DNA of 64,000 nt from Pseudomonadota bacterium (lineage in GTDB: Bacteria > Pseudomonadota > Gammaproteobacteria > Burkholderiales > Burkholderiaceae_C), in the NCBI GenBank assembly GCA_041694945.1, contig JBGFRU010000044.1, positions 15,165 to 79,164 of the forward strand. Direction: 5' to 3'. Each line of letters starts with the position of its first letter. Position 1 is the first letter of the stretch. Positions 15,053 through 64,000 of this stretch are shown here, piece after piece. The notes beneath the pieces are model-generated. The model did not search any database, had not been told where the DNA came from, and was given only the letters and a program-made list of their open reading frames with translations. The position numbers and the translations under genes are program-made.

Positions 15053-15307
15053 TTATGTCAGCAAGGGCAACAGCCCCCCGCGCGCATCGAGCGCGTGCAG
15101 GTCGTCGCAACCGCCGATGTGCTGGCCGTCGATGAAAATCTGCGGCACGCTGCTGCGCCCGGCGCGCTCGGTCATGGCGGCGCGCAGGTCGGGCCGGCCA
15201 TCGACGACGATCTCGTCCCACGCCTGCACCCCGCGCGCGCGCAGCAGCGCCTTGGCGCGGTGGCAGTAGGGGCAGTAATCGCTGCTGTAGAAGGTGATCT
15301 GGGCCAT
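15053..15307 (-). CDS. grxC: glutaredoxin 3
   Basis: [39 protein letters not shown], with a CPYC active site. 84 aa after trimming the track ORF. Confidence 0.93.
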
Positions 15308-49425: not shown

Positions 49426-50460
49426 ATGAACCCCTCATTGCCCCCTGCTGCCCCGGAGCAGCCCCCGGTTTGGCACCCCAACCGCAGGCTGGTGCTGCGC
49501 GGCGCATTGGCCAGTCTGGGCGCCTTGGGCAGCCTGGGGCTGAGCGGCTGCGCCGAAGCGCCGCACCAAACCGTGGCGCTGGGCTACGGCGGCGTGCTGT
49601 CGATGCGCCTGAGCGCCGACGGCGAGCAGGTGCTGGTCGGCTCGGTGCAGCAAGGCGCCGGGCTGTGGCACTGGCGCACCCAGCAGCGCCTGGCCACCCT
49701 GAGCCACGCCGAGCAAGAGCTGGCGCAGGTGTTTGCCAGCGCCTTTGCCCCAGACGGCACGCGCGGTGTGACGGCCGAGCGCCACAACCTGGTGCATTGG
49801 GATTTGGGCACTGGCCGCGTGCTTGGCCACTGGAGCGCACAGGCCAGCGTACGCAGCGTGGCGGTGGCCAACCGGGGCCGACGCATTCTGGCCGGCCTGA
49901 ACTCGCGCGAAGCCTGGCTGCTCGACGGCCACAACGTGCGCCTGCCGGTGGTCATCCCGCACGCCGAGGCGGTGCGCGCGGTGGACATCAGCGCCGACGC
50001 GGCCTTGGGCGCGACCGGCGCCGACGACGGCCTGCTGCGCGCTTGGGACCTGGAGCGGGGCGCGGCCTTCATCACTTGGAAATTCGAGGCCCCGGTGACC
50101 ACCGCCGTGTTCTCGCCCGACCGGCGGCTCCTGTTTGCCGGCCCGGCGCACGGCCAAGGGCGGATCTGGGACCTGGCCCAGGGCACCGTGCTGCACCCGA
50201 CCTTGGGCGGAGTGCGCGGCGGCTTCAGCCAGGCGCGGTTTTCGGCCGATGGCGCGCTGCTGCTCACCGCCGCCGCCAACGGCCAGATCAACCTGTGGAC
50301 GGTGCAAAGCGGGCAGCTGCGGCAAAGCTGGCAACTGCCGCGCTCGCCCTTGGACCGCACCGAGCGCCCGGGCGTGCTCGATATCGGCTTCGATGCGCAA
50401 ACCCGTCAGGTGCTGGTCGCCGCGACCAGCGGCCAAGTGCTGGTCTGGCGGCTGGGTTGA
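49426..50460 (+). CDS. WD40/beta-propeller repeat lipoprotein
   Basis: N-terminus ..RRLVLRGALASLGALGSLGLSGC (Tat-like RR plus a lipobox), then repeated ..LL.TAAADG....W blades. Start at ATG 49426. Confidence 0.75.
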   Translation: MNPSLPPAAPEQPPVWHPNRRLVLRGALASLGALGSLGLSGCAEAPHQTVALGYGGVLSMRLSADGEQVLVGSVQQGAGLWHWRTQQRLATLSHAEQELAQVFASAFAPDGTRGVTAERHNLVHWDLGTGRVLGHWSAQASVRSVAVANRGRRILAGLNSREAWLLDGHNVRLPVVIPHAEAVRAVDISADAALGATGADDGLLRAWDLERGAAFITWKFEAPVTTAVFSPDRRLLFAGPAHGQGRIWDLAQGTVLHPTLGGVRGGFSQARFSADGALLLTAAANGQINLWTVQSGQLRQSWQLPRSPLDRTERPGVLDIGFDAQTRQVLVAATSGQVLVWRLG

Positions 50461-50501
50461 GCCCCAGCCCCAGCCCCCAGCCCCCAGCCCAGCATCGGTC
50501 T

Positions 50502-52850
50502 TCAGTCGGCCGTGGCCTCTTCGGGTTCGGCCGGTTCGGCGCGGGCTTGGCGCTCTTTTTTGCTCAGCGGCTGAATGTCGAGCTTGACTTCGGGCTTTTC
50601 TGGGTTGCTGGTGTCGATGTCCACCTCGAGCCGCCCGCCTTCGGTCAGGCGGCCAAACAGCAGCTCGTCGGCCAGCGAGCGCCGGATGGTGTCCTGGATC
50701 AGGCGCTGCATCGGGCGCGCGCCCATCAGCGGGTCGAAGCCCTTGGCGGCCAGGTGCTTGCGCAAGGCGTCGCTGAAGCTGACCTCGACCTTTTTCTCGG
50801 CCAGTTGCTGCTCGAGCTGCAGCAGGAATTTGTCCACCACGCGCATGATGACCTGCTCATCGAGCGCCTTGAAGCCGACGATGGCGTCGAGCCGGTTGCG
50901 AAACTCGGGCGTGAACAGGCGCTTGATGTCGGCCATTTCGTCGCCGGCCTGGCGCACGTTGGTGAAACCGATGGCCGCCTTGTTCATGGTCTCGGCGCCG
51001 GCGTTGGTGGTCATGATCAGGATCACGTTGCGAAAATCCGCCTTGCGCCCGTTGTTGTCGGTCAGGGAGCCGTGGTCCATCACCTGCAGCAGCACGTTGA
51101 AAATGTCGGGGTGCGCCTTCTCGATCTCGTCGAGCAGCAGCACACAGTGCGGCTTCTTGCTGATGGCCTCGGTGAGCAAGCCACCCTGGTCGAAACCCAC
51201 ATAGCCGGGGGGCGCGCCGATCAGCCGGCTCACGGCGTGGCGCTCCATGTATTCCGACATATCGAAGCGCGTCAGCTCGATGCCCAGGATGAAGGCCAGT
51301 TGCTTGGCGGCCTCGGTCTTGCCCACGCCGGTGGGGCCGCTGAACAGAAAGGCGCCGATCGGCTTGTCGGGCTTGCCCAGCCCCGAGCGCGCCATTTTCA
51401 CGCTGGCCGCCAGCAGTTCCAGCGCCTTGTCTTGCCCGAACACCACCGCCTTGAGGTCGCGCTCCAGGGTTTGCAGCTTGCCGCGGTCGTCGCTGCTCAC
51501 GCTGGCGGGCGGAATGCGCGCGATCTTGGCGACGATTTCCTCCACCTCGGCCTTGCCGATGGTTTTCTTGCGCTTGGACGGGGTGAGGATGCGCTGCGCC
51601 GCGCCGGCCTCGTCGATCACGTCGATGGCCTTGTCGGGCAGATGGCGGTCGTTGATGTACTTGGCCGACAGCTCGGCCGCCGCCTGCAGCGCCGCCGCCG
51701 CGTACTTGACGCTGTGGTGCTCTTCGAAACGGCTTTTCAGGCCCTTGAGAATGTCGATGGTCTGCGCCACCGTGGGCTCGACCACATCGATTTTCTGGAA
51801 GCGGCGGCTGAGCGCGGCGTCTTTCTCGAAAATGCCCCGGTACTCGGTGAAGGTGGTGGCGCCGATGCACTTGAGCACGCCGCTCGAGAGCGCCGGCTTG
51901 AGCAGGTTGGAGGCATCGAGCGTGCCGCCCGAGGCCGCACCGGCGCCGATCAGGGTGTGGATCTCGTCGATGAACAAAATCGCGTTGGGCTTGTCTTTGA
52001 GCGACTTGAGCACGCCCTTGAGGCGCTGCTCGAAATCGCCGCGGTACTTGGTGCCCGCCAGCAGCGAACCCATGTCGAGCGCATAGACGGTGGCCTCGGC
52101 CAGCACCTCGGGCACTTCTTTTTGCACGATGCGCCAGGCCAGGCCCTCGGCGATCGCCGTCTTGCCCACCCCGGCCTCGCCCACCAGCAGCGGGTTGTTC
52201 TTGCGCCGGCGGCACAGAATCTGGATCACGCGCTCGACCTCGTAGTCGCGGCCGATGAGAGGGTCGATCTTGCCGTCGCGCGCCAGCACGTTGAGGTTTT
52301 GCGTGAACTGCTCGAGCGGCGAGGCCTTCTCGGGGGCTTTGCTCTCGCCACTGGCTTCCTCGTTGTCGGCGGCGCCGCCGCCCTCGGAGGGCTTGGCGGG
52401 CTCGGGCGGGTCGCTCTTCTTGATGCCGTGGGCGATGTAGTTGACCACGTCGAGCCGGCTCACGCCCTGCTGGTGCAGGTAGTAAACGGCGTGCGAGTCT
52501 TTCTCGCCAAAGATCGCCACCAGCACATTGGCGCCGGTGACTTCCTTCTTGCCGTTGCCGGTGCTCTGCACGTGCATGATGGCGCGCTGGATCACGCGCT
52601 GGAAGCCCAGCGTGGGCTGGGTGTCGACCTCGTCGGCCCCGGCGACCTGAGGCGTGTTGTCCTTGATGAAGTGCGACAAGGACTTGCGCAACTCGTCAAG
52701 TTTGGCCGAACAGGCGCGCAACACATCGGCGGCGCTGGGGTTGTCGAGCAGGGCCAACAGCAGGTGCTCGACGGTGATGAATTCGTGGCGCTGCTGGCGC
52801 GCTTCCACGAAGGCCATGTGCAAGCTGACTTCGAGTTCCTGGGCGATCAT
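50502..52850 (-). CDS. clpA: ATP-dependent Clp protease ATP-binding subunit ClpA
   Basis: Clp N-domain ([15 protein letters not shown]....[14 protein letters not shown]) and two AAA+ modules ([18 protein letters not shown]). Confidence 0.95.
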
Positions 52851-52928
52851 GGTGCGTTTCCTTCAGTCTAGCCTGTAATTTACTGCGATTTGCGGCATCT
52901 GTGCGCAGCAATTGGGGCAAATCCGCCC

Positions 52929-53267
52929 TTATTCAATGGGTTCAGACACGCACTGCAGCGGGTGGCCGTGGTGCGCCGCGGCTTGCAGCACCTGATCGAC
53001 CTTGGTCTGGGCCACGTCGCGCGTGAACACGCCACACACCCCTCGCCCTTCGAGGTGGATTTTGAGCATGATCTGGGTCGCGTGCTCGCGGTCTTTGTTG
53101 AAAAACTCCTGCAGCACCTGCACCACGAACTCCATCGGGGTGAAGTCGTCGTTGAGCAGCAGCACCTGGTGCAGCTTGGGTGGGCGCACGCGCTGGCGGC
53201 GGCGCTCGAGCACCGTGGCACCGTCGTCTGCAGGCAACCGTGGTTTGAGGTCGGGCTGAATAGGCAT
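52929..53267 (-). CDS. clpS: ATP-dependent Clp protease adaptor ClpS
   Basis: ..[27 protein letters not shown].....A.QIML.IH..G... Confidence 0.93.
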
Positions 53268-53347
53268 AGCGGAATTTTACGCAGCTATACGTTCGCCTGC
53301 AGGCTGTCTGAACTGACTTAGGGGCAGGCTGGGGCAGGAAAACACCA

Positions 53348-53513
53348 CCGCAGCCGTCTTTCCACGCGTACGCGCACGGGTCACGCAGGTTGCGCCAGAG
53401 CAGGAAGCGCGTGAACTCGTGGTAAAACCCGATGCAGTTGCAGCCCACCACCCGTGCTGCCGTGCGGCAGTGGAGCTCGATCGGCGCGCCTATGGGCCGC
53501 AACTCGGCACCGG
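53348..53513 (-). pseudogene. decayed fragment of an exodeoxyribonuclease I (sbcB) paralogue
   Basis: Hand alignment of DNA and protein to sbcB at 48820-49110: ..PIGAPIELHCR..[internal deletion]..VGCNCIGFYHEFTRFLLWRNLRDPCAYAWKDGCG versus sbcB ..PIGAPLMFYCR.....VGVGFNSIRFDDEFTRFMLWRNLLDPYAREWKNGCG. Only about 55 codons remain. Confidence 0.75.
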
Positions 53514-53514
53514 C

Positions 53515-54471
53515 TTACGGCACCGGCATCAGGAAGTTCTGGCTGATGCGCTGCCCGAGCAGGCTGACGCGGTCGAGGAACTGCGTCAGAAAGGCGTGCA
53601 AGCCGTTGGCCAGGATCTCTTCCACACGGCCAAATTGCAATTCGGCGCGCAACTTGCCGGCGTGGCGCTCGGTTTCGGCCGACGACTCGTTGCGCACGGC
53701 GCGCAGGTTGTTCACCACCTCGTTCATGCACGCCAGCAGGCTGCGTGGCATATCGGGGCGCAGAATCAGCAGTTCAGCCACACGTTCGGGCGTGATCAGG
53801 GTGCGGTAGACCTTGCGGTAGACGTCAAAGGCGCTGACGCTGCGCAGAATCGCGCTCCAATGGTAAAAATCCAGTTCTTGCTCGGGCCGCCCCATGCTGC
53901 CGTAGAGCTCGTTGTGGGCACTCTGAAACTTGACGTCGATCAGCCGCGCGGTGTTGTCGGCGCGCTCCAGGAAGGTGCCCAGGCGGTAAAAGTGAAACGC
54001 CTCGTCTTGCAGCATGGTGCCTACCGCCACCCCGCGCGAGAGGTGCGAGCGGTACTTGACCCATTCAAAAAACTCCGACGGGTCCTTGGCTATGCTGGCA
54101 TTGCGCAATCGGCGCTGCAGCTCAAGCCAGGTCTGGTTTTGCGTCTCCCACAGCTCGGTGGTCAGGACGCCGCGCACGGCGCGGGCGTTTTCGCGCGCGG
54201 CACGCAGGCAACTGACGATGCTCGACGGGCTGTCTTCGTTGCACACCATGAAGTGCAGCACCTTGGCCGGGGTGACTTCGCCGTACTGCTGCTGGTAGGC
54301 CGGCATCAGCTCGCAAATGCGCAACAGCCCGGCCCAACCAGCCTCGGCCATGGCGCTGGGTTGCGGCAACAAGGCGCTTTGGTGGTTGACGTCGAGGATG
54401 CGCGCGGTGTTTTCGGCGCGTTCGGTGTAGCGCGCCATCCAGAACAGGTGGTCGGCAGTGCGTGACAACAT
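53515..54471 (-). CDS. alpha-E domain protein (COG2307/DUF403 type)
   Basis: MLSRTADHLFWMARYTERAENTARILDV.. and a second ..FHFYRLGTFLERADNTARLIDVK.. repeat. Start trimmed to ATG 54471. Confidence 0.88.
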   Translation of the reverse strand: MLSRTADHLFWMARYTERAENTARILDVNHQSALLPQPSAMAEAGWAGLLRICELMPAYQQQYGEVTPAKVLHFMVCNEDSPSSIVSCLRAARENARAVRGVLTTELWETQNQTWLELQRRLRNASIAKDPSEFFEWVKYRSHLSRGVAVGTMLQDEAFHFYRLGTFLERADNTARLIDVKFQSAHNELYGSMGRPEQELDFYHWSAILRSVSAFDVYRKVYRTLITPERVAELLILRPDMPRSLLACMNEVVNNLRAVRNESSAETERHAGKLRAELQFGRVEEILANGLHAFLTQFLDRVSLLGQRISQNFLMPVP

Positions 54472-54485
54472 GGCTCGCGTCTCCG

Positions 54486-55934
54486 TCAGGTTTCCAGTAT
54501 CCAGGTGTCTTTGGTGCCGCCGCCCTGGGACGAGTTGACCACCAGCGAGCCGGCCTTGAGCGCAACCCGCGTCAGGCCGCCGGGCACGATTTGCACTTTC
54601 TTGCCGCTCAGCACAAAGGGCCGCAGGTCGATGTGGCGTGGCGCAATGCCTTCCTCGACGTAGGTTGGGCAGGTCGACAGGCTCAGGGTAGGCTGGGCGA
54701 TGTAGCCTTGCGGGTTGGCCAGCAGCGCGGCGCGGAAGGCCTCGATTTCTGCACCGCTGGCCGCCGGGCCCACCAACATGCCGTAGCCGCCAGCCCCGTG
54801 CACCTCCTTGACCACGAGCTCCTTCAGGTGCGCCAGCATGTAGGCCAAATCCTCGCTGTTGCGGCCCTGAAAGGTCGGTACGTTTTGCAGGATCGGGCGC
54901 TCGCCGAGGTAAAACTCGATCATCTGCGGCACGTAGGGGTAGATCGACTTGTCGTCGGCCACGCCGGTGCCGATGGCATTGCAAAGCGTCACGCGGCCTT
55001 TGCGGTAGGCCTGCAGCAAGCCCGGGCAGCCGAGGGTGGAGTCGCTCCGAAAGGCGTTCGGGTCCAGGAAGTCGTCGTCGACGCGGCGGTAAATCACGTC
55101 GATGCGGCGCGGGCCGCGCGTAGTGCGCATGTAGACGAAGTCGTCCTTGACGAACAAGTCCTGGCCTTCCACCAGCTCGACGCCCATTTGTTGCGCCAGG
55201 AAGGCGTGCTCGAAATAGGCGCTGTTGTACATGCCGGGCGTGAGCAAGACCACAGTCGGCTCGGTGGTATGGGCCGGGCTGACGGCGCGCAGGGTGTCGA
55301 GCAACCAGTCCGGGTAGTGGTCGACCGGCGCGACGCGGTTTTCGCTGAACAGTGCGGCAAACAGGCGCATCATCATCTTGCGGTCTTCGAGCATGTAGCT
55401 CACGCCGCTGGGCACGCGCAGGTTGTCTTCGAGCACGTAGTACTCGGCCCCCTCGGCGCTGCCGGGGCGCGGCGCGCGCACGATGTCGATGCCCGCAATG
55501 TGCGCGTAGACGCCGCCACGCACGGCCACGCCGCGCATTTCGGGCCGCAACTGCGCGTTGCCGGCGATCTGTTCCTGCGGCACGATGCCCGCGCGCACAA
55601 TTTCCTGGCCGTGGTAGATGTCGTGGATGAAGCGGTTCAGGGCATTGACGCGCTGGATCAGCCCTTGCTCGATGCTGCGCCACTCGTGCGCCGGGATCAC
55701 GCGCGGAATCAGGTCAAAGGGGATCAGGCGTTCGGTACCAGCACCGTTTTCGTCCTTCTCGCCATAGACCGCAAAGGTGATGCCGACGCGGCGAAAAATC
55801 ATCTCGGCTTGCTCGCGCATGTCGGCCATGGCCGCGGCGGGCTGCTCGGCCAGCCAGCGTGCATAGGCCTGGTAGTGCGCCCGTACCTGCCCGCAGGCGT
55901 CGTACATTTCGTCGTATGGAAGGGGGCTGCTCAT
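54486..55934 (-). CDS. circularly permuted type-2 ATP-grasp protein (COG2308 type)
   Basis: MSSPLPYDEMYD..IPFDLIPRVI...W..IE.GL.QRV.ALN.F..DIY..Q.I...G..P....; ..VLLTPG.YNSAYFEH.FLA..MG..LVEG.DL.V....V.M.T..G..R.DVIYRR.DD.FLDP; ..VN..G.G.ADDK..Y.YVP. Start at ATG 55934; the 577-aa upstream part of the track ORF is antisense to the next gene. Confidence 0.88.
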   Translation of the reverse strand: MSSPLPYDEMYDACGQVRAHYQAYARWLAEQPAAAMADMREQAEMIFRRVGITFAVYGEKDENGAGTERLIPFDLIPRVIPAHEWRSIEQGLIQRVNALNRFIHDIYHGQEIVRAGIVPQEQIAGNAQLRPEMRGVAVRGGVYAHIAGIDIVRAPRPGSAEGAEYYVLEDNLRVPSGVSYMLEDRKMMMRLFAALFSENRVAPVDHYPDWLLDTLRAVSPAHTTEPTVVLLTPGMYNSAYFEHAFLAQQMGVELVEGQDLFVKDDFVYMRTTRGPRRIDVIYRRVDDDFLDPNAFRSDSTLGCPGLLQAYRKGRVTLCNAIGTGVADDKSIYPYVPQMIEFYLGERPILQNVPTFQGRNSEDLAYMLAHLKELVVKEVHGAGGYGMLVGPAASGAEIEAFRAALLANPQGYIAQPTLSLSTCPTYVEEGIAPRHIDLRPFVLSGKKVQIVPGGLTRVALKAGSLVVNSSQGGGTKDTWILET

Positions 55935-56291
55935 GGTGACAGGGGGAGGCAAACGGTGCGCTCCTGCAAGCCTGCCAAGCAAAATCCAGGCCAGCCCTGC
56001 CGGCAGCGGCCCTGGTTTGTTGCTTGGCCCCATCGCCCTCCCTCTCCCCCTGCCCTTGCCCCAGGCACGCAGCCCAACGCACCGCGCTGGGGCAAACGCC
56101 GCACAAGCTGCACCATCTTGGGCCTGCGCCGGGTTGCCATGCCCGGTGCCGGGGCGCAGCGGCTGCAATGAGCCCTGGCGCAATCCTTGCTTGCATGCAC
56201 AGTGCCCGCTTGCCAGCAAGCGCTTGCCCCGCGCGGGTGGCGCTGCCGGCCCGCCCTTTACCGGTGCAACCCAAATCAGCGAAAGTCTGCC

Positions 56292-59200
56292 ATGCCGATC
56301 CATGTTGCCCTCAACCACGTCACCCACTACCGCTACGACCGCTGGGTGAAACTGGCCCCGCAGGTGCTGCGGCTGCGCCCGGCACCGCACACGCGCTCGC
56401 AGGTGCTGTCGTACGCGCAACGCATCGAGCCTGCCGAGCATTTCATCAACTGGCAGCAAGACCCGTTCGCCAATTACCTGGCCCGGGTGGTGTTCCCGCA
56501 GCCCATGCGCAGCTTTCAGGTCACCATCGATCTGGTGCTGGAAATGGCGGTGCACAACCCGTTCGACTTCTTTCTGGAGCCCTACGCCGAAACCTTCCCC
56601 TTTGCCTACCCGAGCGACTTGCAGACCGAACTGGCACCTTACCTGGAAGCCGCCCCAGCCGGGCCGCACTTGCAGGCATATCTGGCCCCCACGCGCGCCC
56701 AGTTGGCGGGCGCAGCGGCGCGCACGGTGGACTTTCTGGTCGCGCTCAACCAGCAACTGCAACGCGATATTGCCTACACCATACGGCTCGAACCTGGTGT
56801 GCAAACGCCGGAACAAACCTTGGGCCGCGCCACCGGCTCGTGCCGCGACAGCGCCTGGCTGCTGGTGCAGATGCTGCGCCAGTTGGGGCTGGCGGCGCGC
56901 TTCGTCTCGGGCTACCTGATTCAACTCAAGCCCGACGTCAAGCCCACCGACGGCCCGGCTGGCGCGGCGCAGGACTTTTGCGACCTGCACGCCTGGTGCG
57001 AGGTCTATTTGCCCGGCGCGGGCTGGATCGGGCTCGACCCGACCTCGGGCCTGCTGGCTGGCGAGGGCCATATTCCCCTGGCCTGCACGCCACAGCCTTC
57101 GAGCGCGGCCCCGATCAGCGGTGCGCTGGACGAATGCGAAGTCGCGTTCGAGCACCAGATGCGGCTCGAGCGCGTACACGAAAGCGCGCGCGTGACCAAG
57201 CCCTACAGCGAGGCGCAGTGGCAGGCAATTCATGCTTTGGGGCAGCAAGTCGACGCCGAGCTCGAGCGCGGCGACGTGCGCCTGACCATGGGCGGCGAGC
57301 CCACGTTCGTCAGCAGCAGCGAGCGCGACGCGCCGCAGTGGAACACCACTGCGCTGGGCCCGAGCAAGCGCCGCTACGCGCTGGAGCTGCTGCAGCGCTT
57401 GCGCGAACGCTACGGCGCCGGCGGCATCGTCCATTTGGGCCAGGGCAAGTGGTACCCGGGCGAGCCCCTGCCGCGCTGGGCGCTGTCGCTCTACTGGCGC
57501 ACCGACGCCGAGCCGATCTGGCACAACCCGGCGCTGCTGGACGGCGAACACGCGCCCCAGCGCTGCGACAGCGCCGACGCACAGCGCTTCATCGCTGCCT
57601 TGGCGCAGCGCCTCGGCCTGGGTTTGGAGACCGTCCAGCCGGCTTACGAAGACAGTTGGTACCACCTCTGGCGCGAAGGCCGACTGCCGCTCAACGTGGA
57701 CCCGCTCGAAGCCCGGCTCGACGACGAACTCGAACGCGCCCGCCTGCGCCGCGTCTTTCGCCAGGGGCTGGACGCCGTGGTCGGCTACGCCCTGCCCTTG
57801 CAGGCACAGCCCGCTGCGCCGGGCTCGTGTGCCGCCAGCAGCCGTTGGCGCAGCGGGCCTTGGTTCCTGCGCGAGCAGCGCCTGTACCTGATTCCTGGCG
57901 ATTCACCCATGGGCTACCGCCTGCCGCTGGACGCGCTGCCCTGGGTGGCAGCGAGCGACTGCCCCTTGCCCACCGAGCCCGACCCGGCTCAGCCACGCCC
58001 CGACTTACCCGCCGCCAGCGCCCTGCGCCTACGCTATGCGCAGCCTCCCCTGGGCAGCGCCGCAGCGCCGGCTGTGGCGGCGCGCATGCCGCAGCGCGGT
58101 GAATCTGCCGCCTGGCTGGTGCGCACCGCCCTGTGCGTGGAAGCGCGCGACCCGCAACGCGGCAACGGCTGCGAACCCGACCCCAAGGAGGGCAGTGCGC
58201 CGCAGTCGTGCCTGTACGTCTTCATGCCACCGCTGCCCGAGCTGGAAGACTACCTCGACCTGCTCGCCGCCGTCGAGGCCACGGCCGCGCAGTTGGGGCT
58301 GCCGATCGTGCTGGAGGGCTACCCACCGCCACGCGATGCGCGCTTGCAGATGCTGCAAGTCACACCCGACCCAGGCGTGATCGAGGTCAACATCCACCCG
58401 GCCCGGCATTGGGGTGAACTGGTCGAACGCACCGAGTTTTTGTACGAGGCGGCGCAGCAAGTGGGCTTGTGCGCCGAGAAGTTCCTCATCGACGGGCGCC
58501 ACACCGGCACCGGGGGCGGCAACCATTTCGTGCTCGGTGCAGCCACGCCGCTCGACAGCCCCTTTTTGCGCCGCCCCGAATTGTTGGCCAGCCTGCTGGC
58601 CTACTGGCACAACCACCCCAGCCTGAGCTACCTGTTCAGCGGCCTGTTCATCGGCCCGACCAGCCAGGCCCCGCGCGTGGACGAAGCGCGCAACGACCAG
58701 GTGTACGAGCTCGAGATCGCACTCAGCCAGATCGAACGCAGCCGCGAACTTTACGGGCAGCAGATGCCGCCCTGGCAAGTGGACCGCTGCTTGCGCAACA
58801 TCCTGGTCGATGTCAGCGGCAACACGCACCGCAGCGCGTTCAGCATCGACAAGCTGTACAGCCCCGACGGGCCGAGTGGACGCTTGGGGCTGCTCGAACT
58901 GCGCGCTTTCGAGATGCCACCGCACGCGCGCATGAGCCTGGTGCAGCAACTGCTGTTGCGCGCACTCGTGGCCCGGTTCTGGCAGCAACCTGGGCGCGCT
59001 CGCCTCACGCGCTGGGGCACCCAACTGCACGACCGCTTCCTGCTGCCGACTTTTGTGCGCCTGGACTTTGAGGACGTACTCGACGACCTGGCGCAACACG
59101 GCTTTGGTTTTGAACGCGCCTGGTTCGAGCCGCACTTCGAGTTTCGCTTTCCACTCATCGGCCAACTGGCGGCGCGCGGCATGGTGCTGACGCTGCGCCA

Positions 59201-59654
59201 CGCGCTCGAACCCTGGCATGTGCTGGGCGAGGAAGGCTCGACCCACGGCACCGTGCGCTACGTCGATTCTTCCGTCGAGCGGCTGGAGGTCAAGCTCAGC
59301 GGCTACAACGACAGCCGCTATGCTCTGGGCGTCAACGGGCGCGCGCTGCCGCTGCACCCCAGTGGCCTGGCGGGCGAATACGTGGCTGGCGTGCGCTTCA
59401 AGGCCTGGAACCCGGCTTCCAGCCTGCACCCGGGCGTGGGCGTGCACGCACCCCTGACCTTCGACATTTTCGACACCTGGCTGGGGCGCTCGGTGGGCGG
59501 CTGCCAATACCACGTCATGCACCCGGGCGGGCGCAACCACGAACGCCTGCCAGTCAACGCCTTCGAAGCCGAGAGCCGGCGCCTGGAACGCTTCTTCCGC
59601 ATGGGGCACACCCCGGGCACGCTGGCGCTGCAAGCCACGCAGCCGAGCCGGTAG
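56292..59654 (+). CDS. large transglutaminase-family protein (N-terminal transglutaminase-like cysteine-protease core + long DUF2126-type C-terminal region)
   Basis: MPIHVALNHVTHYRYDR.V.L.PQV.RLRP..H; Cys-His-Asp core context GSCRDSAWLLVQMLR..G..ARFVSGY / DLHAWCEVYLPGAGWIGLDPTSG. 1120 aa from ATG 56292. Confidence 0.88.
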   Translation: MPIHVALNHVTHYRYDRWVKLAPQVLRLRPAPHTRSQVLSYAQRIEPAEHFINWQQDPFANYLARVVFPQPMRSFQVTIDLVLEMAVHNPFDFFLEPYAETFPFAYPSDLQTELAPYLEAAPAGPHLQAYLAPTRAQLAGAAARTVDFLVALNQQLQRDIAYTIRLEPGVQTPEQTLGRATGSCRDSAWLLVQMLRQLGLAARFVSGYLIQLKPDVKPTDGPAGAAQDFCDLHAWCEVYLPGAGWIGLDPTSGLLAGEGHIPLACTPQPSSAAPISGALDECEVAFEHQMRLERVHESARVTKPYSEAQWQAIHALGQQVDAELERGDVRLTMGGEPTFVSSSERDAPQWNTTALGPSKRRYALELLQRLRERYGAGGIVHLGQGKWYPGEPLPRWALSLYWRTDAEPIWHNPALLDGEHAPQRCDSADAQRFIAALAQRLGLGLETVQPAYEDSWYHLWREGRLPLNVDPLEARLDDELERARLRRVFRQGLDAVVGYALPLQAQPAAPGSCAASSRWRSGPWFLREQRLYLIPGDSPMGYRLPLDALPWVAASDCPLPTEPDPAQPRPDLPAASALRLRYAQPPLGSAAAPAVAARMPQRGESAAWLVRTALCVEARDPQRGNGCEPDPKEGSAPQSCLYVFMPPLPELEDYLDLLAAVEATAAQLGLPIVLEGYPPPRDARLQMLQVTPDPGVIEVNIHPARHWGELVERTEFLYEAAQQVGLCAEKFLIDGRHTGTGGGNHFVLGAATPLDSPFLRRPELLASLLAYWHNHPSLSYLFSGLFIGPTSQAPRVDEARNDQVYELEIALSQIERSRELYGQQMPPWQVDRCLRNILVDVSGNTHRSAFSIDKLYSPDGPSGRLGLLELRAFEMPPHARMSLVQQLLLRALVARFWQQPGRARLTRWGTQLHDRFLLPTFVRLDFEDVLDDLAQHGFGFERAWFEPHFEFRFPLIGQLAARGMVLTLRHALEPWHVLGEEGSTHGTVRYVDSSVERLEVKLSGYNDSRYALGVNGRALPLHPSGLAGEYVAGVRFKAWNPASSLHPGVGVHAPLTFDIFDTWLGRSVGGCQYHVMHPGGRNHERLPVNAFEAESRRLERFFRMGHTPGTLALQATQPSR

Positions 59655-59682
59655 GCCTGTTCGAATTGTTTGCGACGCGTGA

Positions 59683-60834
59683 TCACATTGCGTGCGACGG
59701 AACTGGGTTTTGTTCGGATTGCGTGCGACATTCGGCGGCGTTTTGCTCGGATTGCGTGTGACATTGGGCGGCGTTTTGCTCGGATTGCGTGCGACATTGG
59801 GCGGCAGTTTTACGGGCGAGGATGAGGTCGCCCAGGGCGGATTCGACACTGCGGCGGGCGCTGCAGTGTTTGGCGTAGGCAAGGAAGGACTTGACGCGCT
59901 GGCGCACGTAGTCGAGGTCGATGTGGCCGTCGTGGTAGTCGGCGGCCATGTGCTTGAAGGCCAGGCGCGCGCGCTTGATGTTGCGCTTGCGCGGCAGGAT
60001 GTGGGTGGGCCAGATGCGGTAGCCGCAAAAGTCGATGCCGCGCTGCCAGGGATGGATGCCGGTCTTGGGGTTGAGCGTCAGGGCCAGGCCATTGACGGCT
60101 GCACCGAGATCGCGCAGGGCGCGCTGTGCGCTGGCTTTGTCGGGCAGGATGGCGACAAAGTCGTCCATGTAGCGGGCGTAGAAGCGCAGACCGAGTTCGT
60201 CTTTGGCGATGTGGTCGAGCCGGTTGAGCACGATGTTGGCGGCGAGCTGACTGGTGAGCGCACCGACGGGCAGGCCGACTCCGCCTTCGTGGCCGTAGCC
60301 GCCGATGACGGCGCGCCAGAGCCAGAGCACGTCGCGGTCGGCGATGGTGCGCTCGATTTCTGCCATAAGGACGTCGTGCCGGATGCTGGCGAAGTATTTG
60401 CTGATATCGGCCTTGAGGACGTAGGCGCGCTCGCCCCAGGCGCGCTTGGCAACGCGCATGAAGTGTTGCACACGCGCCACAGCCGCTTGCGTGCCTTTGC
60501 CGCTGCGGCAGGCGTAGGTGTCGGCGATGAAGCCGGCCTCGAACAGGGGTTCGACGCGGCGCACCAGGGCGTGGTGCAGCACGCGGTCGGCAAAGGGCGG
60601 GGCTTGAATCTGGCGCCGCTTGGGCTCGAAGACGACGAAGGCGCGCGCGGCGCCGGGCTGCCAACTGCGCCAAACGAGGTGGTTGTGCAGGTTGATGAGG
60701 TTTTCTTCGAGGTTGAGGGCGTAGCGCATGACGTCGGGGCTGTAGCGCTTGCCCATGCGCGCAGCGCGGTAGGCGGCGTGCAGGTTTTCGAAGGCGATGA
60801 GATCAGGCCAAAGGCCGTTGTGGGTGCGGGGCAT
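59683..60834 (-). CDS. DGR reverse transcriptase
   Basis: Collinear with my recollection of the Bordetella phage BPP-1 bRT: ..LWPDLIAFENLHAAYRAARMGKR.., FVVFEPKRRQI.AP.F.DRVLHHAL, YACRSGKGTQAAV, LKADISKYF.SI.H, GLPVGALTSQLAANIVLN (DGR-specific I/VGxxxSQ motif), FYARYMDDFV (YMDD catalytic box), IDFCGYRIWPTH.LPRKRNIKRA. Confidence 0.95.
   Translation of the reverse strand: MPRTHNGLWPDLIAFENLHAAYRAARMGKRYSPDVMRYALNLEENLINLHNHLVWRSWQPGAARAFVVFEPKRRQIQAPPFADRVLHHALVRRVEPLFEAGFIADTYACRSGKGTQAAVARVQHFMRVAKRAWGERAYVLKADISKYFASIRHDVLMAEIERTIADRDVLWLWRAVIGGYGHEGGVGLPVGALTSQLAANIVLNRLDHIAKDELGLRFYARYMDDFVAILPDKASAQRALRDLGAAVNGLALTLNPKTGIHPWQRGIDFCGYRIWPTHILPRKRNIKRARLAFKHMAADYHDGHIDLDYVRQRVKSFLAYAKHCSARRSVESALGDLILARKTAAQCRTQSEQNAAQCHTQSEQNAAECRTQSEQNPVPSHAM
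59687..59816. repeat. four tandem ~33-bp repeats at the extreme 3' end of the RT ORF
   Basis: Units start at 59687, 59718, 59751 and 59784, with consensus ATTGCGTGCGACATTGGGCGGCGTTTTGCTCGG. They translate in the RT frame as AAQC(R/H)TQSEQN repeats. Confidence 0.9.
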
Positions 60835-61136
60835 GGGTCAGGCGTCGAATAGGTGCGGCACCGCTTTCTTCAGCAGTCGCTCGCGGCATTCTTGTTCCAC
60901 CTCGTCCTTGAGCAGCCGGGTCATGTGCTGCAGACCCTTGTGCAGCACCTCGGTCTGCACCGAAACCGGCACGGGCGGGTCAGAGTCCATGTCTACAGCC
61001 AACGTGCACCGACCGTCCAGCATGTCGGCTGTATCGCGCAGCCACTGGCCCAGACCGGCAAGGGTCGGGAGCAAGGCCCCAAAGGATGCGCGCTGGACGC
61101 GCGCCCGGTGGGCGACGCGCCTGCTGGCGTGGGTCG
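60835..61136 (-). ncRNA. DGR spacer between TR and RT (expected part of the TR-containing template RNA)
   Basis: Called by position, by analogy with characterised DGRs. About 300 nt, which is longer than the BPP-1 spacer as I remember it. Also contains a coding-like ORF; see findings. Confidence 0.5.
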
Positions 61137-61243
61137 TTTGCGAGGCGGCCGCCGATGTTCGTGTTCGCATTCGACGCGGCGTTGTTGAGGTTGAGATAGA
61201 ACAGACCGGCGTTCGCGCCGTTGCCCCAATTGCCGCCGTTATA
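61137..61243 (-). repeat. DGR template repeat (TR)
   Basis: 107-bp match to 62236..62342. The minus-strand reading is rich in AAY codons: YNGGNWGNGANAGLFYLNLNNAASNANTNIGGRLA. Confidence 0.93.
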
Positions 61244-61280
61244 AGCCTTGCCCCTTTGTTTGATTGCAACAAGGTCTAAT

Positions 61281-61640
61281 TCATGCGCTTGCCCCTTCGT
61301 GCTTTATCCAGGCACCGACCATGGCGCCGATTTCGTTGATGTGGCGCATCCAGACGCCCAACCGATGGCTGTTGATGTAAGCGGCGCGGTGCGCCTTGCG
61401 CACCAGGCCGCGCAGCAATTCGATTTCCACGTCAAGGTCAAACAGGGCAGCCGCTTTCTGGCGCCGTTTCCAGGCGACGATGGTCAGGCGCAGCAGCCGG
61501 TTCATTGCGGCGCGCAGGTCGGCGCAAAGCAGATGGCGCTCCAGGCGTGGAAATTGGTGCAGCACGGTATGGGTGTAGGCATCGAGCTCTTCGAGCTTGG
61601 TCAGCAAGGCCAAATACGGGGCGGGCTGCGCCACACTCAA
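61281..61640 (-). CDS. avd: DGR accessory variability determinant (Avd, four-helix-bundle family)
   Basis: About 119 aa, helical and basic: ..LEELDAYTHTVLHQFPRLERHLLCADLRAAMNRLLRLTIVAWKRR...EIELLRGLVRKAH...YINSHRLGVWMRHINEIGAMVGAWIKH. Sits between the target gene and the TR. Start is TTG 61640 or GTG 61634, abutting the stop of the preceding ORF. Confidence 0.85.
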   Translation of the reverse strand: MSVAQPAPYLALLTKLEELDAYTHTVLHQFPRLERHLLCADLRAAMNRLLRLTIVAWKRRQKAAALFDLDVEIELLRGLVRKAHRAAYINSHRLGVWMRHINEIGAMVGAWIKHEGASA

Positions 61641-62095
61641 GCCGCCTGCTCGATGGCGCGCAGATCGGCCGCGTCGGGCGCGCTCGAGTTGGCCCAGTCG
61701 CGCACGGCGTTGATGTAGGTGGCCATGGCCTTGCGCTCGGCGGCGGGGCCGTCGCGCAGCAGATTGAGCTGGCGGTGGATTGGATAGCGCGCCTGGATGG
61801 CGGCGGCAGCCAGGCGGTTGACCTCGGCCAGGCGCTCGGCGGCAGCAGCGGCCTCGACGGCGGTGGCATCGGGCTCGAGATCGAGTTCGCCGAGCAGGGT
61901 GCAGGCGGCAAGGTCGCAGGCCGGGATGTCTTGCGCCACGCCGGGGATGCGCGCCGAAATGAACAGCCCGTCGGCGCGGTAGTCGGCGGGCACGGCCCAG
62001 ACGCAGACGGTGGATGCGACTGCGAGTGTGGGCAGGGCGATGGCGTGCTCTGCGCCCTGGTGGCTCAAGTGCAGGGTGCGGTTTTCAATGTGCAT
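61637..62095 (-). CDS. hypothetical protein encoded between the DGR target gene and avd
   Basis: 152 aa, strong GC3 codon bias, AGGAG 7 nt upstream of the ATG at 62095, stop fused to the avd start. I recognise no family. Confidence 0.65.
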   Translation of the reverse strand: MHIENRTLHLSHQGAEHAIALPTLAVASTVCVWAVPADYRADGLFISARIPGVAQDIPACDLAACTLLGELDLEPDATAVEAAAAAERLAEVNRLAAAAIQARYPIHRQLNLLRDGPAAERKAMATYINAVRDWANSSAPDAADLRAIEQAA

Positions 62096-62175
62096 GGAAA
62101 GGCTCCTGGGGGTTGGGGTTGATGATGGGGTGCGGCACGCGCATCAAGCCGCGCGGCTGCATGCGCGCCGGGGCC

Positions 62176-62192
62176 GCCCCGCTCGGCGGGGC
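62176..62192 (-). other. GC-rich hairpin downstream of the VR (candidate DGR target-recognition cruciform or terminator stem)
   Basis: GCCCCGC-tcg-GCGGGGC, a 7-bp stem with a 3-nt loop and no following U tract. It begins 37 nt past the target-gene stop codon on the minus strand. Confidence 0.45.
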
Positions 62193-62228
62193 AGCCCAAC
62201 AGCCACATGACGCAGGCCACATGACGCC

Positions 62229-64000
62229 TTACACCTTTGCGAGGCGGCCGCCGACGGTCGTGCTCGCAGTCGACGCGGCGTCGTTGAGGTAGAGATAGAA
62301 CAGACCGGCGTGCGCGCCGTCGCCCCAACCGCCGCCGTGATACGCGACGCAGTTGGGCGCTTGCCAATAGTGGTCGCCAAAGCTGCCCTGGCCGGATGCA
62401 GCCACGGCGTCGGGCACAAAGACTGCGCCCAGGTTGACTAGCCCGGCGCTGTCGCTGGCCATAGTGAGCGGTGCGCCGCTGGCCGGGGCGGTGCGGCTGC
62501 TGGTCTGGTAGCTGCGCTGGCCGTCGGTGCCCCAGATGCGGTAGCGCGAGCTGGCATCGGTCTGCAAGCCGTCGAGCATCTGCCAGACGTTGCCCCAGAG
62601 GCCAACGATGCCGCGCCAGGTGGCCTGCGCCACGGTGGCGTGGTCGACGTTGAGTGCGCTTGAGCCCGCCACATGGCCTTGACCGATGAGAGCCTGGCTG
62701 TCGGAGCCGCCCAGCTCGATCAGGGCCAGCATCTGGATGGCGCCGAGCTGGTACACGTCCCAGAGCGCAAAGCCGGTCACGCCGCCGGTGTTGCGCGCGT
62801 TGGCGCGCGCCTGCATGGTCGGGAAGTCGATCGACACCAGCGGCGCAACACCACCCACCGAGCCCAGGCGTGTTCCGCCGTCGTTGGTGCCCTGGAACTT
62901 GCCGACCCAGAATTGCGCAATCTGCGCCCCGGCGTGCATGAAGGCCGGGTGGACGGCAAAGTTGGCCGCCGGCTGGTCGGAGATGAGCCAAAAACGCCGC
63001 CCGGCGTGCGGCCCGCTGGGCACGGTGCCGGTGCGAAAGAAAAAGCGCGGCACGCGCACCATGGCCTGGCCGTCGATGGTCTGGTCGACGATGCCGGCAT
63101 AGACCGGGTGGTTGGCGAAGGTGGCGGTGGTGGTGCTGAGGTTGTTGAAGTGCTCGTCGACGCGCTGCCAGGCCCCGGCCCCGCCGCCGGTGGCGGTTTG
63201 CACGATGCCAATGATGTGCGCGAACTGCTGGCGCGTGGTGAAGGCCACATCCGCCGACCATTCGGATGCCCCCAGGCTGGTGCCGGTGTGGCGCACGCGC
63301 AACACGTACTGCGTTTGCCCGGCCAGCAGCACACCGGCGGGCAGGGTGAGGCTGGTGCGAGCGGCTGCGCTGGCGCCCGAATCCCACAGCGGCGCGGCCC
63401 AGGTGCCGCTGCTCAAGCGCAATTGCCATTGGCTGGAGGCATGGGCGTCGGCGCCGCCGGTGGTGGCGAAGGCGGCGGTCTGGAAGGTGGGCTGCTCGGG
63501 CACATCCGTCTGCCCCGGCGTGGGCGCAATGACAGCCGGGGTGTTGACAAAGGCGTAGCTGGCGCGGGTGGTGAAGCTGCTGCTGGCCGACCAGTCAGAG
63601 ACCAGGCCGGCGGCGTCGGTGACGCGCGCACGCACGTGGAAGGTGGTATTGACCGGCAGCACCCCGGCTGGCACCGAGAAGGTGAGCGCGGCGCGCGGCC
63701 CGCTGTCGTGCAGCACGGTGGCGAAGGTGGCGTTGGTGCTGATCTGGAACTGGGTCGAGGCAAAGGCGTTGCCCGCCGGGCTGGCAAAGCCCGCCACCGA
63801 CAGGGTGGGCGTCTCCACCACGTTGGTGGCACCGTTGGCGGGCGCGTTGATGACAGGCGCAGCCGGGCGCATGGCGGGGTTGACGAAGCCGGCCTGCCCG
63901 GTGGCGCTGCCCAGGGCCACGAGGTGGCGGATGGTCATGGCTTCGCCCGCGACTTCCAGGCGCAAAAAGCCGTCGCCGCGCATGGGCACGAGGTACTCGA
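62229..64000 (-). CDS. DGR target (variable) protein: two Fn3/Ig-like repeats + C-terminal CLec/FGE-like fold carrying the VR; the 5' end may be outside the window
   Basis: 586 aa from ATG 63989, and the frame stays open to position 64000. The C-terminus ..WRGIVGLWGNVWQMLDG.....YHGGGWGDGAHAGLFYLYLNDAASTASTTVGGRLAKV is typical of Mtd-like C-type-lectin-fold DGR targets. Confidence 0.88.
   Translation of the reverse strand, partial: EYLVPMRGDGFLRLEVAGEAMTIRHLVALGSATGQAGFVNPAMRPAAPVINAPANGATNVVETPTLSVAGFASPAGNAFASTQFQISTNATFATVLHDSGPRAALTFSVPAGVLPVNTTFHVRARVTDAAGLVSDWSASSSFTTRASYAFVNTPAVIAPTPGQTDVPEQPTFQTAAFATTGGADAHASSQWQLRLSSGTWAAPLWDSGASAAARTSLTLPAGVLLAGQTQYVLRVRHTGTSLGASEWSADVAFTTRQQFAHIIGIVQTATGGGAGAWQRVDEHFNNLSTTTATFANHPVYAGIVDQTIDGQAMVRVPRFFFRTGTVPSGPHAGRRFWLISDQPAANFAVHPAFMHAGAQIAQFWVGKFQGTNDGGTRLGSVGGVAPLVSIDFPTMQARANARNTGGVTGFALWDVYQLGAIQMLALIELGGSDSQALIGQGHVAGSSALNVDHATVAQATWRGIVGLWGNVWQMLDGLQTDASSRYRIWGTDGQRSYQTSSRTAPASGAPLTMASDSAGLVNLGAVFVPDAVAASGQGSFGDHYWQAPNCVAYHGGGWGDGAHAGLFYLYLNDAASTASTTVGGRLAKV
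62236..62342 (-). repeat. DGR variable repeat (VR) at the 3' end of the target gene
   Basis: 107 bp aligned to the TR with 11 mismatches, all opposite TR adenines. The 3' end carries a shared GC-rich 14-mer (GGCGGCCGCCTCGC), a position analogous to an IMH element. Confidence 0.93.

Follow-up and report, generated by a model that had tools for sequence, protein, structure and literature searches.

We analysed a 64,000-nucleotide (nt) stretch of DNA from a Pseudomonadota bacterium of the Burkholderiales (positions 15,165 to 79,164 of contig JBGFRU010000044.1, assembly GCA_041694945.1; hereafter the window), the minus strand of which carries at positions 59683-64000 a diversity-generating retroelement (DGR), with a reverse transcriptase (RT), an Avd protein, a template repeat (TR) and a target gene ending in a variable repeat (VR). 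The cassette makes up the module at the right end of a complete prophage of 38,113 bp of the Mu-like transposable type, and we are highly confident that it is a phage-borne DGR by which the receptor-binding tip of this phage's tail fibre is diversified. An earlier note, made from the letters of the window alone, had described it as a chromosomal element. That framing is refuted by the context of the contig, where the rest of the prophage, of which the DGR forms the terminal module, lies to the right of the window.

The listed open reading frames (ORFs) place on the minus strand of 59683-64000, in this order, the target gene with its C-terminal VR, a 152-aa ORF (ORF152), avd, the TR, a spacer of 302 nt and the RT gene, so that the target-avd-TR-RT order of the Bordetella phage BPP-1 DGR, together with the positions stated for its parts, stands as the earlier note had given it. 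The top direct repeat returned by the repeat finder (61137-61246 and 62236-62345, 89% identity) contains a 107-nt core, formed by the TR (61137-61243) and the VR (62236-62342), both on the minus strand, with 11 mismatches. As had been claimed, all 11 fall on adenines of the TR when read on the coding strand; at the 80 positions that are not A the two repeats show no mismatch, and with 27 adenines in the 107-nt TR the chance of 11 out of 11 random positions landing on A is 4.2e-8. The TR holds eight AAC and two AAT codons, and its adenines are found 13 times at codon position 1, 13 times at position 2 and once at position 3. Being placed almost only at positions 1 and 2 of AAC and AAT codons, they cannot give rise to a stop codon by any substitution, and our codon computation puts the number of accessible protein variants at ~ 1.5e14. 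The VR makes up the last 35 codons of the target gene and shares with the TR a G/C-rich 3' end, GGCGGCCGCCTCGCAAA, past which the two sequences diverge. This end, which resembles an initiation of mutagenic homing (IMH) site, and a GC-rich hairpin with a 3-nt loop (62171-62197, minus strand), 38 nt downstream of the end of the TR/VR homology, are both present and may serve in target recognition; the hairpin lies 34-39 nt away in 11 of the 11 elements of this lineage that we aligned, and the changes in its stem are compensatory. Among related elements, all 20 that were examined have A-biased TR/VR pairs. A scan that ignored the A positions, covering the window and the whole prophage, found no second TR or VR, i.e. 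there is one of each. Judged by these sequence features, the assignment of the element to the DGRs is secure.

The two protein components of the retroelement bear this out. The RT (59683-60834, minus strand, 383 aa) matches Pfam RVT_1 (E 5.9e-20) and phrog_1423 (E 2e-126), and the two motifs that the earlier note had pointed to, the GxxxSQ motif (as VGALTSQ) and the YMDD box, are both readable. In the Protein Data Bank (PDB) it matches best the RT of entries 8ub7-8ube, a chain of 328 aa (E 4.5e-51); in the alignment with the 8ub7 chain VGALTSQLAAN stands against IGSLTSQLFAN, and YMDD is found in both. That chain matches the BPP-1 RT (bRT) in length and was treated as the same protein; we take 8ub7-8ube to be the cryo-electron microscopy entries of the bRT-Avd-RNA complex from the BPP-1 preprint study, the text of which is without these codes. 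The next PDB class, that of group II and 'retron-type' RTs, follows at ~ 1e-20 (1.4e-20), 30 orders of magnitude weaker. In sequence, the RT is 39.8% identical to BPP-1 brt and 46% identical to the RT of the closest cultured phage, and the identity rises to 75% among uncultured relatives. The Avd protein (accessory variability determinant; 61281-61640, minus strand, 119 aa) passes the NCBIfam equivalog model NF033474 DivGenRetAVD with 98.7 bits at a cut-off of 80, which confirms by profile search what had been read from the letters; it also matches Pfam bAvd (E 3e-24) and phrog_3206, and a PDB sequence match at E<=0.01 was not found.

Turning to the target, only the 3' two-thirds of the gene lie inside the window (62229-64000, minus strand; the listed ORF is 62229-63989). 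No stop codon precedes the ORF within the window, and it is therefore truncated by the window edge; on the parent contig it encodes a tail fibre of 855 aa that would reach window position 64796. Thus the earlier description of an ORF from 62229 with a C-terminal VR holds, with the qualification that the gene runs past the window. The fibre has Ig/FN3-like repeats and a C-terminal domain of 340 aa with the C-type-lectin fold, which bears the VR, and it matches the PHROG family phrog_5302, 'tail protein', with E 3e-33. A profile of its last 340 residues, built from 22 related loci, matches PDB 5VF4 (TaqVP, the variable protein of a DGR of Thermus aquaticus) with E 1.3e-10; the match runs over three collinear segments and takes in the VR. 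The AlphaFold2 (AF2) model of this domain has a mean confidence (pLDDT) of 95.5, and its top PDB matches by Foldseek are TaqVP (5vf4, E 3.6e-14), PvdO, TvpA (2y3c) and Mtd (1yu0-1yu4). Considering the confident model and the structural matches to TaqVP, TvpA and Mtd, the VR is predicted to be displayed on the C-type-lectin fold that is typical of DGR targets. TaqVP, the best match by both structure and profile, shares with the VR the motif GG.W..G..AGL......; nevertheless, the identity is 19% and the TM-score 0.57, and TaqVP is not a phage fibre.

Beyond position 64000, where the earlier note had suggested looking for phage tail genes, a tail module of the Mu/P2 type was found, followed by the rest of the prophage. 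An exact look-up of the 152-aa protein located it on two contigs, a JGI metagenome contig of 256 kb and one from Logan, each of which is 100% identical to the window. Directly before the target gene on the parent contig lie gpJ, gpI and a gene for a 127-aa fibre protein, and the tail module as a whole comprises the tape measure, gpU, gpX, gpD, baseplate V, PAAR, gpW, gpJ, gpI and the 127-aa fibre protein. The other prophage genes encode sheath, tube, Gp37, capsid, a cement protein, a Mu-like protease (Mu-like_Pro), a G-type morphogenesis protein, Phage_tail_S, Mu F (Phage_Mu_F), Portal_Mu, the large terminase, Mu gp27 (Phage_Mu_Gp27), a holin, an M15 endolysin, Mor and GemA. At the far end are a MuB-like ATPase (phrog_296, DNA transposition protein, E 2.7e-29), a 697-aa transposase (phrog_310, E 4.8e-36, with a weak match to Mu-transpos_C) and a divergent CI-type repressor (phrog_3037). 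The left end was reached through a member (P0072) of the GemA protein cluster, which led to the JGI contig (locus L152); the contig that carries a 99%-identical GemA (P0001) ends before the left end of the prophage, and a scan of metagenome contigs gave no match to the early region. The IMG/VR provirus IMGVR_UViG_3300045454_000107 covers 33.7 kb of the region, with the RT at its very edge. The earlier note had observed no integrase, capsid or terminase gene to the left of the cassette, and the window indeed holds no phage genes there, the neighbours being the host genes for DUF2126, CP_ATPgrasp, Alpha-E and ClpS/ClpA; the absence of an integrase is explained by the transposase that the prophage carries. 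No tRNA was found in 50000-64000, and the integration is therefore not tRNA-linked.

The exact ends of the prophage can be read from the host gene that it interrupts. The right terminal inverted repeat (59652-59676), TAGGccTGTTCGaATTGttTGCGAC when read inward on the plus strand of the window, is identical at 20 of 25 positions to the left end (L152 3884-3908), which reads TAGGgaTGTTCGgATTGcaTGCGAC, and the element is flanked by a direct repeat CCGG (59648-59651, with the second copy at L152 3880-3883). In silico removal of the element and of one CCGG joins ...QPSR to EFPYTFDLRRP*, and the restored C-terminus matches the Pfam DUF2126 profile up to its last position (826 of 826) with 550.2 bits, whereas the protein as it stands reaches position 814 of 826 with 534 bits. 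In 14 Burkholderiales genomes the C-terminus of the orthologues is ...SREFPFTLDLR*. Because excision restores a C-terminus that matches both the end of the Pfam family and the orthologues, we conclude that the prophage is inserted in the 3' end of the DUF2126 'transglutaminase' gene (56187-59654, plus strand), between SR and EF, which removed 11 codons; the predicted empty site reads ...AGCCGGGAGTTC.... The TAG stop of the truncated gene is formed by the first three bases of the right phage end, and the 28 bp between it and the RT (59655-59682) are the phage terminal repeat. Hence the gap of 28 bp that the earlier note had reported is real, and the mere adjacency that it had seen in it is not. 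The rest of the host operon, an 853-aa CP_ATPgrasp/Alpha-E protein and a 296-aa transglutaminase (L152 322-3776), is found 38 kb away, across the prophage. The host genes have their closest matches in Tepidimonas (79%) and Hydrogenophaga (78%). Classical Mu makes a 5-bp target duplication and has the TG at the tip of its ends. Here the flanking repeat has 4 bp, and would have 5 bp only if one copy had mutated, and the conserved TG is found 6 nt inward of the ends; in other respects the insertion is precise. We also tried a model with a 5-bp duplication and TG/CA ends and rejected it, as the flanks do not match and the CCGG model alone restores the host protein.

The ends also carry short repeats that are best read, from their sequence and placement, as candidate transposase-binding sites. 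At the right end, five copies of GTCGCAnnnAATnnGAnC in the same orientation (59659-59795, minus strand) are the only matches in the 64-kb window, where 0.32 would be expected, and three of them are arranged as 33-nt tandem units (59707-59810); at the left end, inverted copies are found at L152 3891-3908 and 4008-4025. In the whole of L152 the motif has 6 matches against 0.05 expected, and with 0-1 mismatch it recurs internally at L152 7959-7976, 10596-10613, 14061-14078 and 17830-17847. The tandem units at the right end lie within the RT ORF and encode AAQCRTQSEQN three times. The conserved core of the RT extends to about residue 340, its last ~ 42 codons overlap the right-end repeats, the RTs of relatives end at 340-347 aa, and in one of these relatives (L009) the RT stops ahead of these repeats, leaving them non-coding. 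The tail is thus best read as an incidental read-through of the end repeats; that it couples retrohoming to Mu-type replication is conceivable but unlikely.

The spacer between TR and RT (60835-61136, minus strand) is conserved in one part and replaced in the other. When the RNA elements of 11 cassettes of this lineage were aligned, only its first ~ 75-80 nt (~ 61060-61136) proved homologous to the ~ 155-nt spacers of the relatives. In this stretch, a first hairpin (61095-61121, minus strand), GGCGCGUCGCC-CACC-GGGCGCGCGUCC, has 92% of its alignment cells paired and three compensatory pairs, and by its position it would correspond to the Avd-binding stem-loop of the BPP-1 DGR RNA. A second element is a duplex in which the spacer strand GCCUUGC-U-CCC (61067-61077, minus strand) pairs with an upstream strand, GGGGCAAGGC (61245-61254, minus strand), located between the avd stop and the TR. 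Here 96% of the cells are paired, four of the ten pairs show compensatory changes and the bulged U is conserved, while all shuffles scored lower and a slid register reached at most 58% paired. In BPP-1, an avd:Sp duplex with an unpaired U forms the 'cPRT stop' (bioRxiv 10.1101/2023.10.23.563531), and the duplex described here parallels it.

After the duplex strand, the ten closest relatives have a linker with an invariant GTCGAAGAT and a stem-loop of 49 nt, which, judged by their position, may be the counterparts of the thumb-ring and RT-binding elements in BPP-1. In their place the window has a fragment of a small ORF (60838-61074, minus strand), approximately the C-terminal 70 aa of an uncharacterised phage protein family of ~ 95 aa, for which 53 homologues were collected at E<=1e-3 (best 5.8e-14); the fragment matches only positions 25-94 of the family profile. 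The family has no Pfam or PHROG counterpart, the fragment was not found in the spacer of any relative, and the family alignment was too divergent for a locus scan; the few contexts recovered, of three homologues on short contigs with small phage genes, one of them beside a terminase-like gene, are phage-like. The first possible start of the small ORF is a TTG at 61074, within the duplex strand. The ORF is in frame with the RT, with TGA CCC alone between them (60835-60840), and a read-through of the TGA would give the RT ~ 80 extra N-terminal residues. By minimum free energy, the fold of the whole spacer is not more stable than that of shuffled sequences (z = 0.07); a stable hairpin is nevertheless predicted at a comparable distance from the TR. 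Since the spacers of more distant DGRs span 150-273 nt, the length alone is not abnormal.

A comparison between copies of the prophage, which the earlier note had recommended for the VR, was made possible by an exact look-up of the RT, which led to a second assembly, the NCBI metagenome-assembled genome GCA_040752095.1, with the same prophage inserted at the identical site. The two copies are identical over 11 kb save for a 1.4-kb patch with 69 substitutions (~ 5% divergence; locus L158 3351-4759 against L157, window ~ 61077-62485), which includes the end of the target gene, ORF152, avd, the TR and 61 nt of the spacer. Within it, the VRs differ at 14 positions. Twelve of these are TR adenines, and the other two are exactly the positions at which the two TRs differ, each VR agreeing with its own TR. 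Such differences have the pattern expected of TR-to-VR transfer with mutagenesis at A, and on account of both the 12 TR-A positions and the two that track their own TR, the compared sequences argue that the cassette has diversified recently. The patch itself looks like the result of recombination with a related cassette, or of co-existing strain variants.

How far these findings exclude other readings has to be considered for the nature of the element as well as for its present state. If the DGR were free-standing in the chromosome and diversified a ligand-binding protein of the bacterial cell surface, host genes with no phage genes among them would be expected to its left, as is the case in the window; however, the target gene stands behind gpJ, gpI and a fibre gene, its product matches a phage tail protein family, the cassette lies within the terminal inverted repeats of a prophage whose in silico excision restores a host gene, and the relatives are placed in the same way in other proviruses and in cultured Mu-like phages, all of which makes this reading very improbable. 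A contractile tail with a PAAR spike is also what a domesticated tailocin, or the remnant of a defective phage, would retain, and the DGR would then diversify a bacteriocin-like particle. We give this little credence, given the terminase, portal, protease, capsid, lysis, repressor and transposase A/B genes, the two ends, the genome size typical of Mu-like phages and the near-identical copy in the second assembly. The remaining alternative of this kind is that the RT is that of a retron, a group II intron or an antiviral DRT system and that the repeat pair is a coincidence. NCBIfam and PADLOC models for group II, Drt3a, retron and UG-type RTs do match it, but all of them far below the curated cut-offs, and the nearest solved relative is a DGR RT by the 30 orders of magnitude given above; moreover, an Avd equivalog is adjacent, the TR/VR pair differs at A only (P = 4e-8), and no Rfam match at E<=1, and no group II or retron RNA, was found in 59600-64000. 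This alternative can be regarded as extremely unlikely.

The state of the DGR is a more delicate matter, and it is possible, though we lean against it, that the element was recently inactivated when the RT-binding part of the spacer was replaced by a small phage gene fragment, in which case no cDNA would be made and the VR would be frozen. Several observations point that way or otherwise weigh against a DGR at work in this copy. The conserved linker and stem-loop of the ten closest relatives are missing, with ~ 230 nt of unrelated coding sequence from a 5'-truncated family member in their stead, and in BPP-1 the deletion of the RT-binding spacer stem-loop, to which the lost one would correspond, abolishes both cDNA synthesis and RT binding (bioRxiv 10.1101/2023.10.23.563531). 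The VRs of the JGI and Logan assemblies are identical, and the RT has a repeat-encoded tail of 42 residues without counterpart in relatives. Furthermore, the VR differences of the second assembly fall inside the recombinant-looking patch that also covers ORF152, avd and the TR, and the A-site differences may have been imported by recombination from a donor phage rather than made by this copy. On the other side, the RT, avd, the TR, the 5' spacer elements, the IMH-like end and the hairpin are intact and free of frameshifts, and not one of the 80 non-A positions differs between VR and TR. The two assemblies, both with the unusual spacer, differ at A sites of the VR and match each its own TR; the spacer length is not abnormal by itself, and a stable hairpin is predicted at a similar distance from the TR, though the whole fold is no better than shuffles. 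Given the replaced 3' half of its spacer, we regard the present activity of this copy as uncertain. The statement of the earlier note that all components appear intact is accordingly right as regards frameshifts and too strong as regards the spacer and the RT with its 42-codon tail. That the DGR still works because the replacement RNA is a non-homologous functional equivalent, or because the small ORF is a new accessory part, may be envisioned but strikes us as unlikely.

For a phage-borne DGR that diversifies the tail-fibre tip, a pathway can be put forward by analogy with BPP-1. The RT-Avd complex would bind an RNA that runs from the end of avd through the TR and the spacer, cDNA synthesis would be primed from the spacer and would stop at the duplex between the spacer and the region upstream of the TR, and adenines would be copied with random misincorporation. 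The resulting cDNA would take the place of the VR, with the G/C-rich 3' end of that repeat and the hairpin beyond it as guides. The beneficiary would be the phage and not the bacterium, through host-range switching.

The likeness to BPP-1 extends over the order of target with C-terminal VR, avd, TR, spacer and RT, the Avd protein, differences at A only in AAC codons, a variable domain with the C-type-lectin fold, the G/C-rich 3' end of the VR, the downstream hairpin, and the upstream:spacer duplex with its bulged U. In contrast, BPP-1 is a podovirus with an integrase-type lifestyle and the present phage a Mu-like transposable myovirus, the BPP-1 target Mtd has 381 aa as compared with 855 aa and Ig-like repeats here, and the BPP-1 spacer has 140 nt where ours has 302 nt with a replaced 3' half. 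Further differences in the window are the additional 152-aa gene between target and avd, the 3-nt loop of the hairpin at ~ 38 nt from the VR and the repeat-encoded C-terminal tail of the RT. DGRs have been described in Mu-like and transposable phages including the hankyphage, Lagaffe and YPCBV-1 (PMC9769972, PMC6199706, PMC5883640, PMC12135933), so that a DGR as the last module of such a phage is already known and the present one is another case, in a Burkholderiales host. In the Chromohalobacter phage YPCBV-1 (OP380511), a Mu transposase, an AAA ATPase, Gam and GemA on the left are followed by Mu-type head and tail genes, and the series closes with the three genes for target, Avd and RT, at 64 bp from the record's right end, which is the same placement as in the window; unlike in the window, the target is a 349-aa SUMF1-type protein and there is no intervening ORF. 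Across the Mu-like phage DGRs of YPCBV-1, Bacillus phage BalMu-1, the Bacteroides hankyphage and Faecalibacterium phage Lagaffe, the RTs are 35-44% identical to ours, a distant sequence relation only, and the Burkholderiales are a different host clade; BalMu-1 and phages of Vibrio and Pseudoalteromonas give RT matches similar to that of YPCBV-1.

Much closer is a lineage of IMG/VR proviruses (L004-L014), with RTs 65-75% identical, targets 44-74% identical over the full length, and the order fibre, 193-aa ORF, avd, TR, spacer, RT, the RT being often at the provirus edge. These share with the window the 5' spacer elements and the hairpin, and differ from it in the ~ 155-nt spacer with linker and stem-loop, the RT of 340-347 aa, the 193-aa ORF and, in some, an ORF of 116 aa. 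The reach of these results beyond annotation is small; they provide a 38-kb Mu-like prophage with exact ends, a truncated host DUF2126 gene and a further example of tail-fibre hypermutation in a transposable phage. Apart from this, the near-identical prophages constitute a natural pair with A-site differences between VRs that each follow their own TR, the 'stop' duplex of upstream segment and spacer, with its bulged U, gains comparative support from a lineage far from BPP-1, and the natural replacement in the spacer could serve to test which spacer elements are dispensable.

The gene between target and avd, ORF152 (61637-62095, minus strand, 152 aa), is conserved in the lineage and always follows the fibre gene. 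Its N-terminal 105 aa are kept directly after the fibre gene in 12 related loci, and the N-terminal region is also present in 35 database proteins, typically of 193 aa, in which the C-terminal half is mostly Pfam HI1402_helical and phrog_2618, a family of unknown function; this helical part is shortened in the ORF152 of the window. ORF152 itself has no match in Pfam, NCBIfam or PADLOC, and PHROG gave only non-significant ones (E 0.096 and 0.42). Its AF2 model (pLDDT 88) consists of a small beta domain and helices, and a structural search gave no significant match, the best PDB entry being the substrate-binding domain of DnaK (E 0.22); the best viral structural matches were an uncharacterised phage protein (E 1.2e-3) and a tail assembly chaperone (E 0.2). 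As the family is found behind a fibre gene in a P2-like setting as well, ORF152 belongs with the fibre rather than with the DGR, and from its position one might guess at a role as a chaperone, in fibre assembly or as an accessory protein.

Some further observations were made along the prophage and its relatives. The PAAR-motif gene of the tail module lies between baseplate V and W (L001 4209-4511), and a gene for a protein with collagen repeats is found between terminase and portal (L152 15787-16563). Just internal to the left terminal repeat and ahead of the repressor gene, a 10-nt sequence, GTGGCGTGAA, is repeated three times in tandem (L152 3925-3957), which may be an operator or a site for a host factor. 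In the closest relatives (L004 9014-9364), an extra membrane-like ORF of 116 aa (phrog_34710) stands between the 193-aa ORF and avd; it is missing in the window and in L009. Finally, some relatives (L015 8288-8971 and 10001-10678; also L016 and L017) have tandem RT genes, 60% identical, with two TR-like copies, which amounts to two DGR cassettes side by side.

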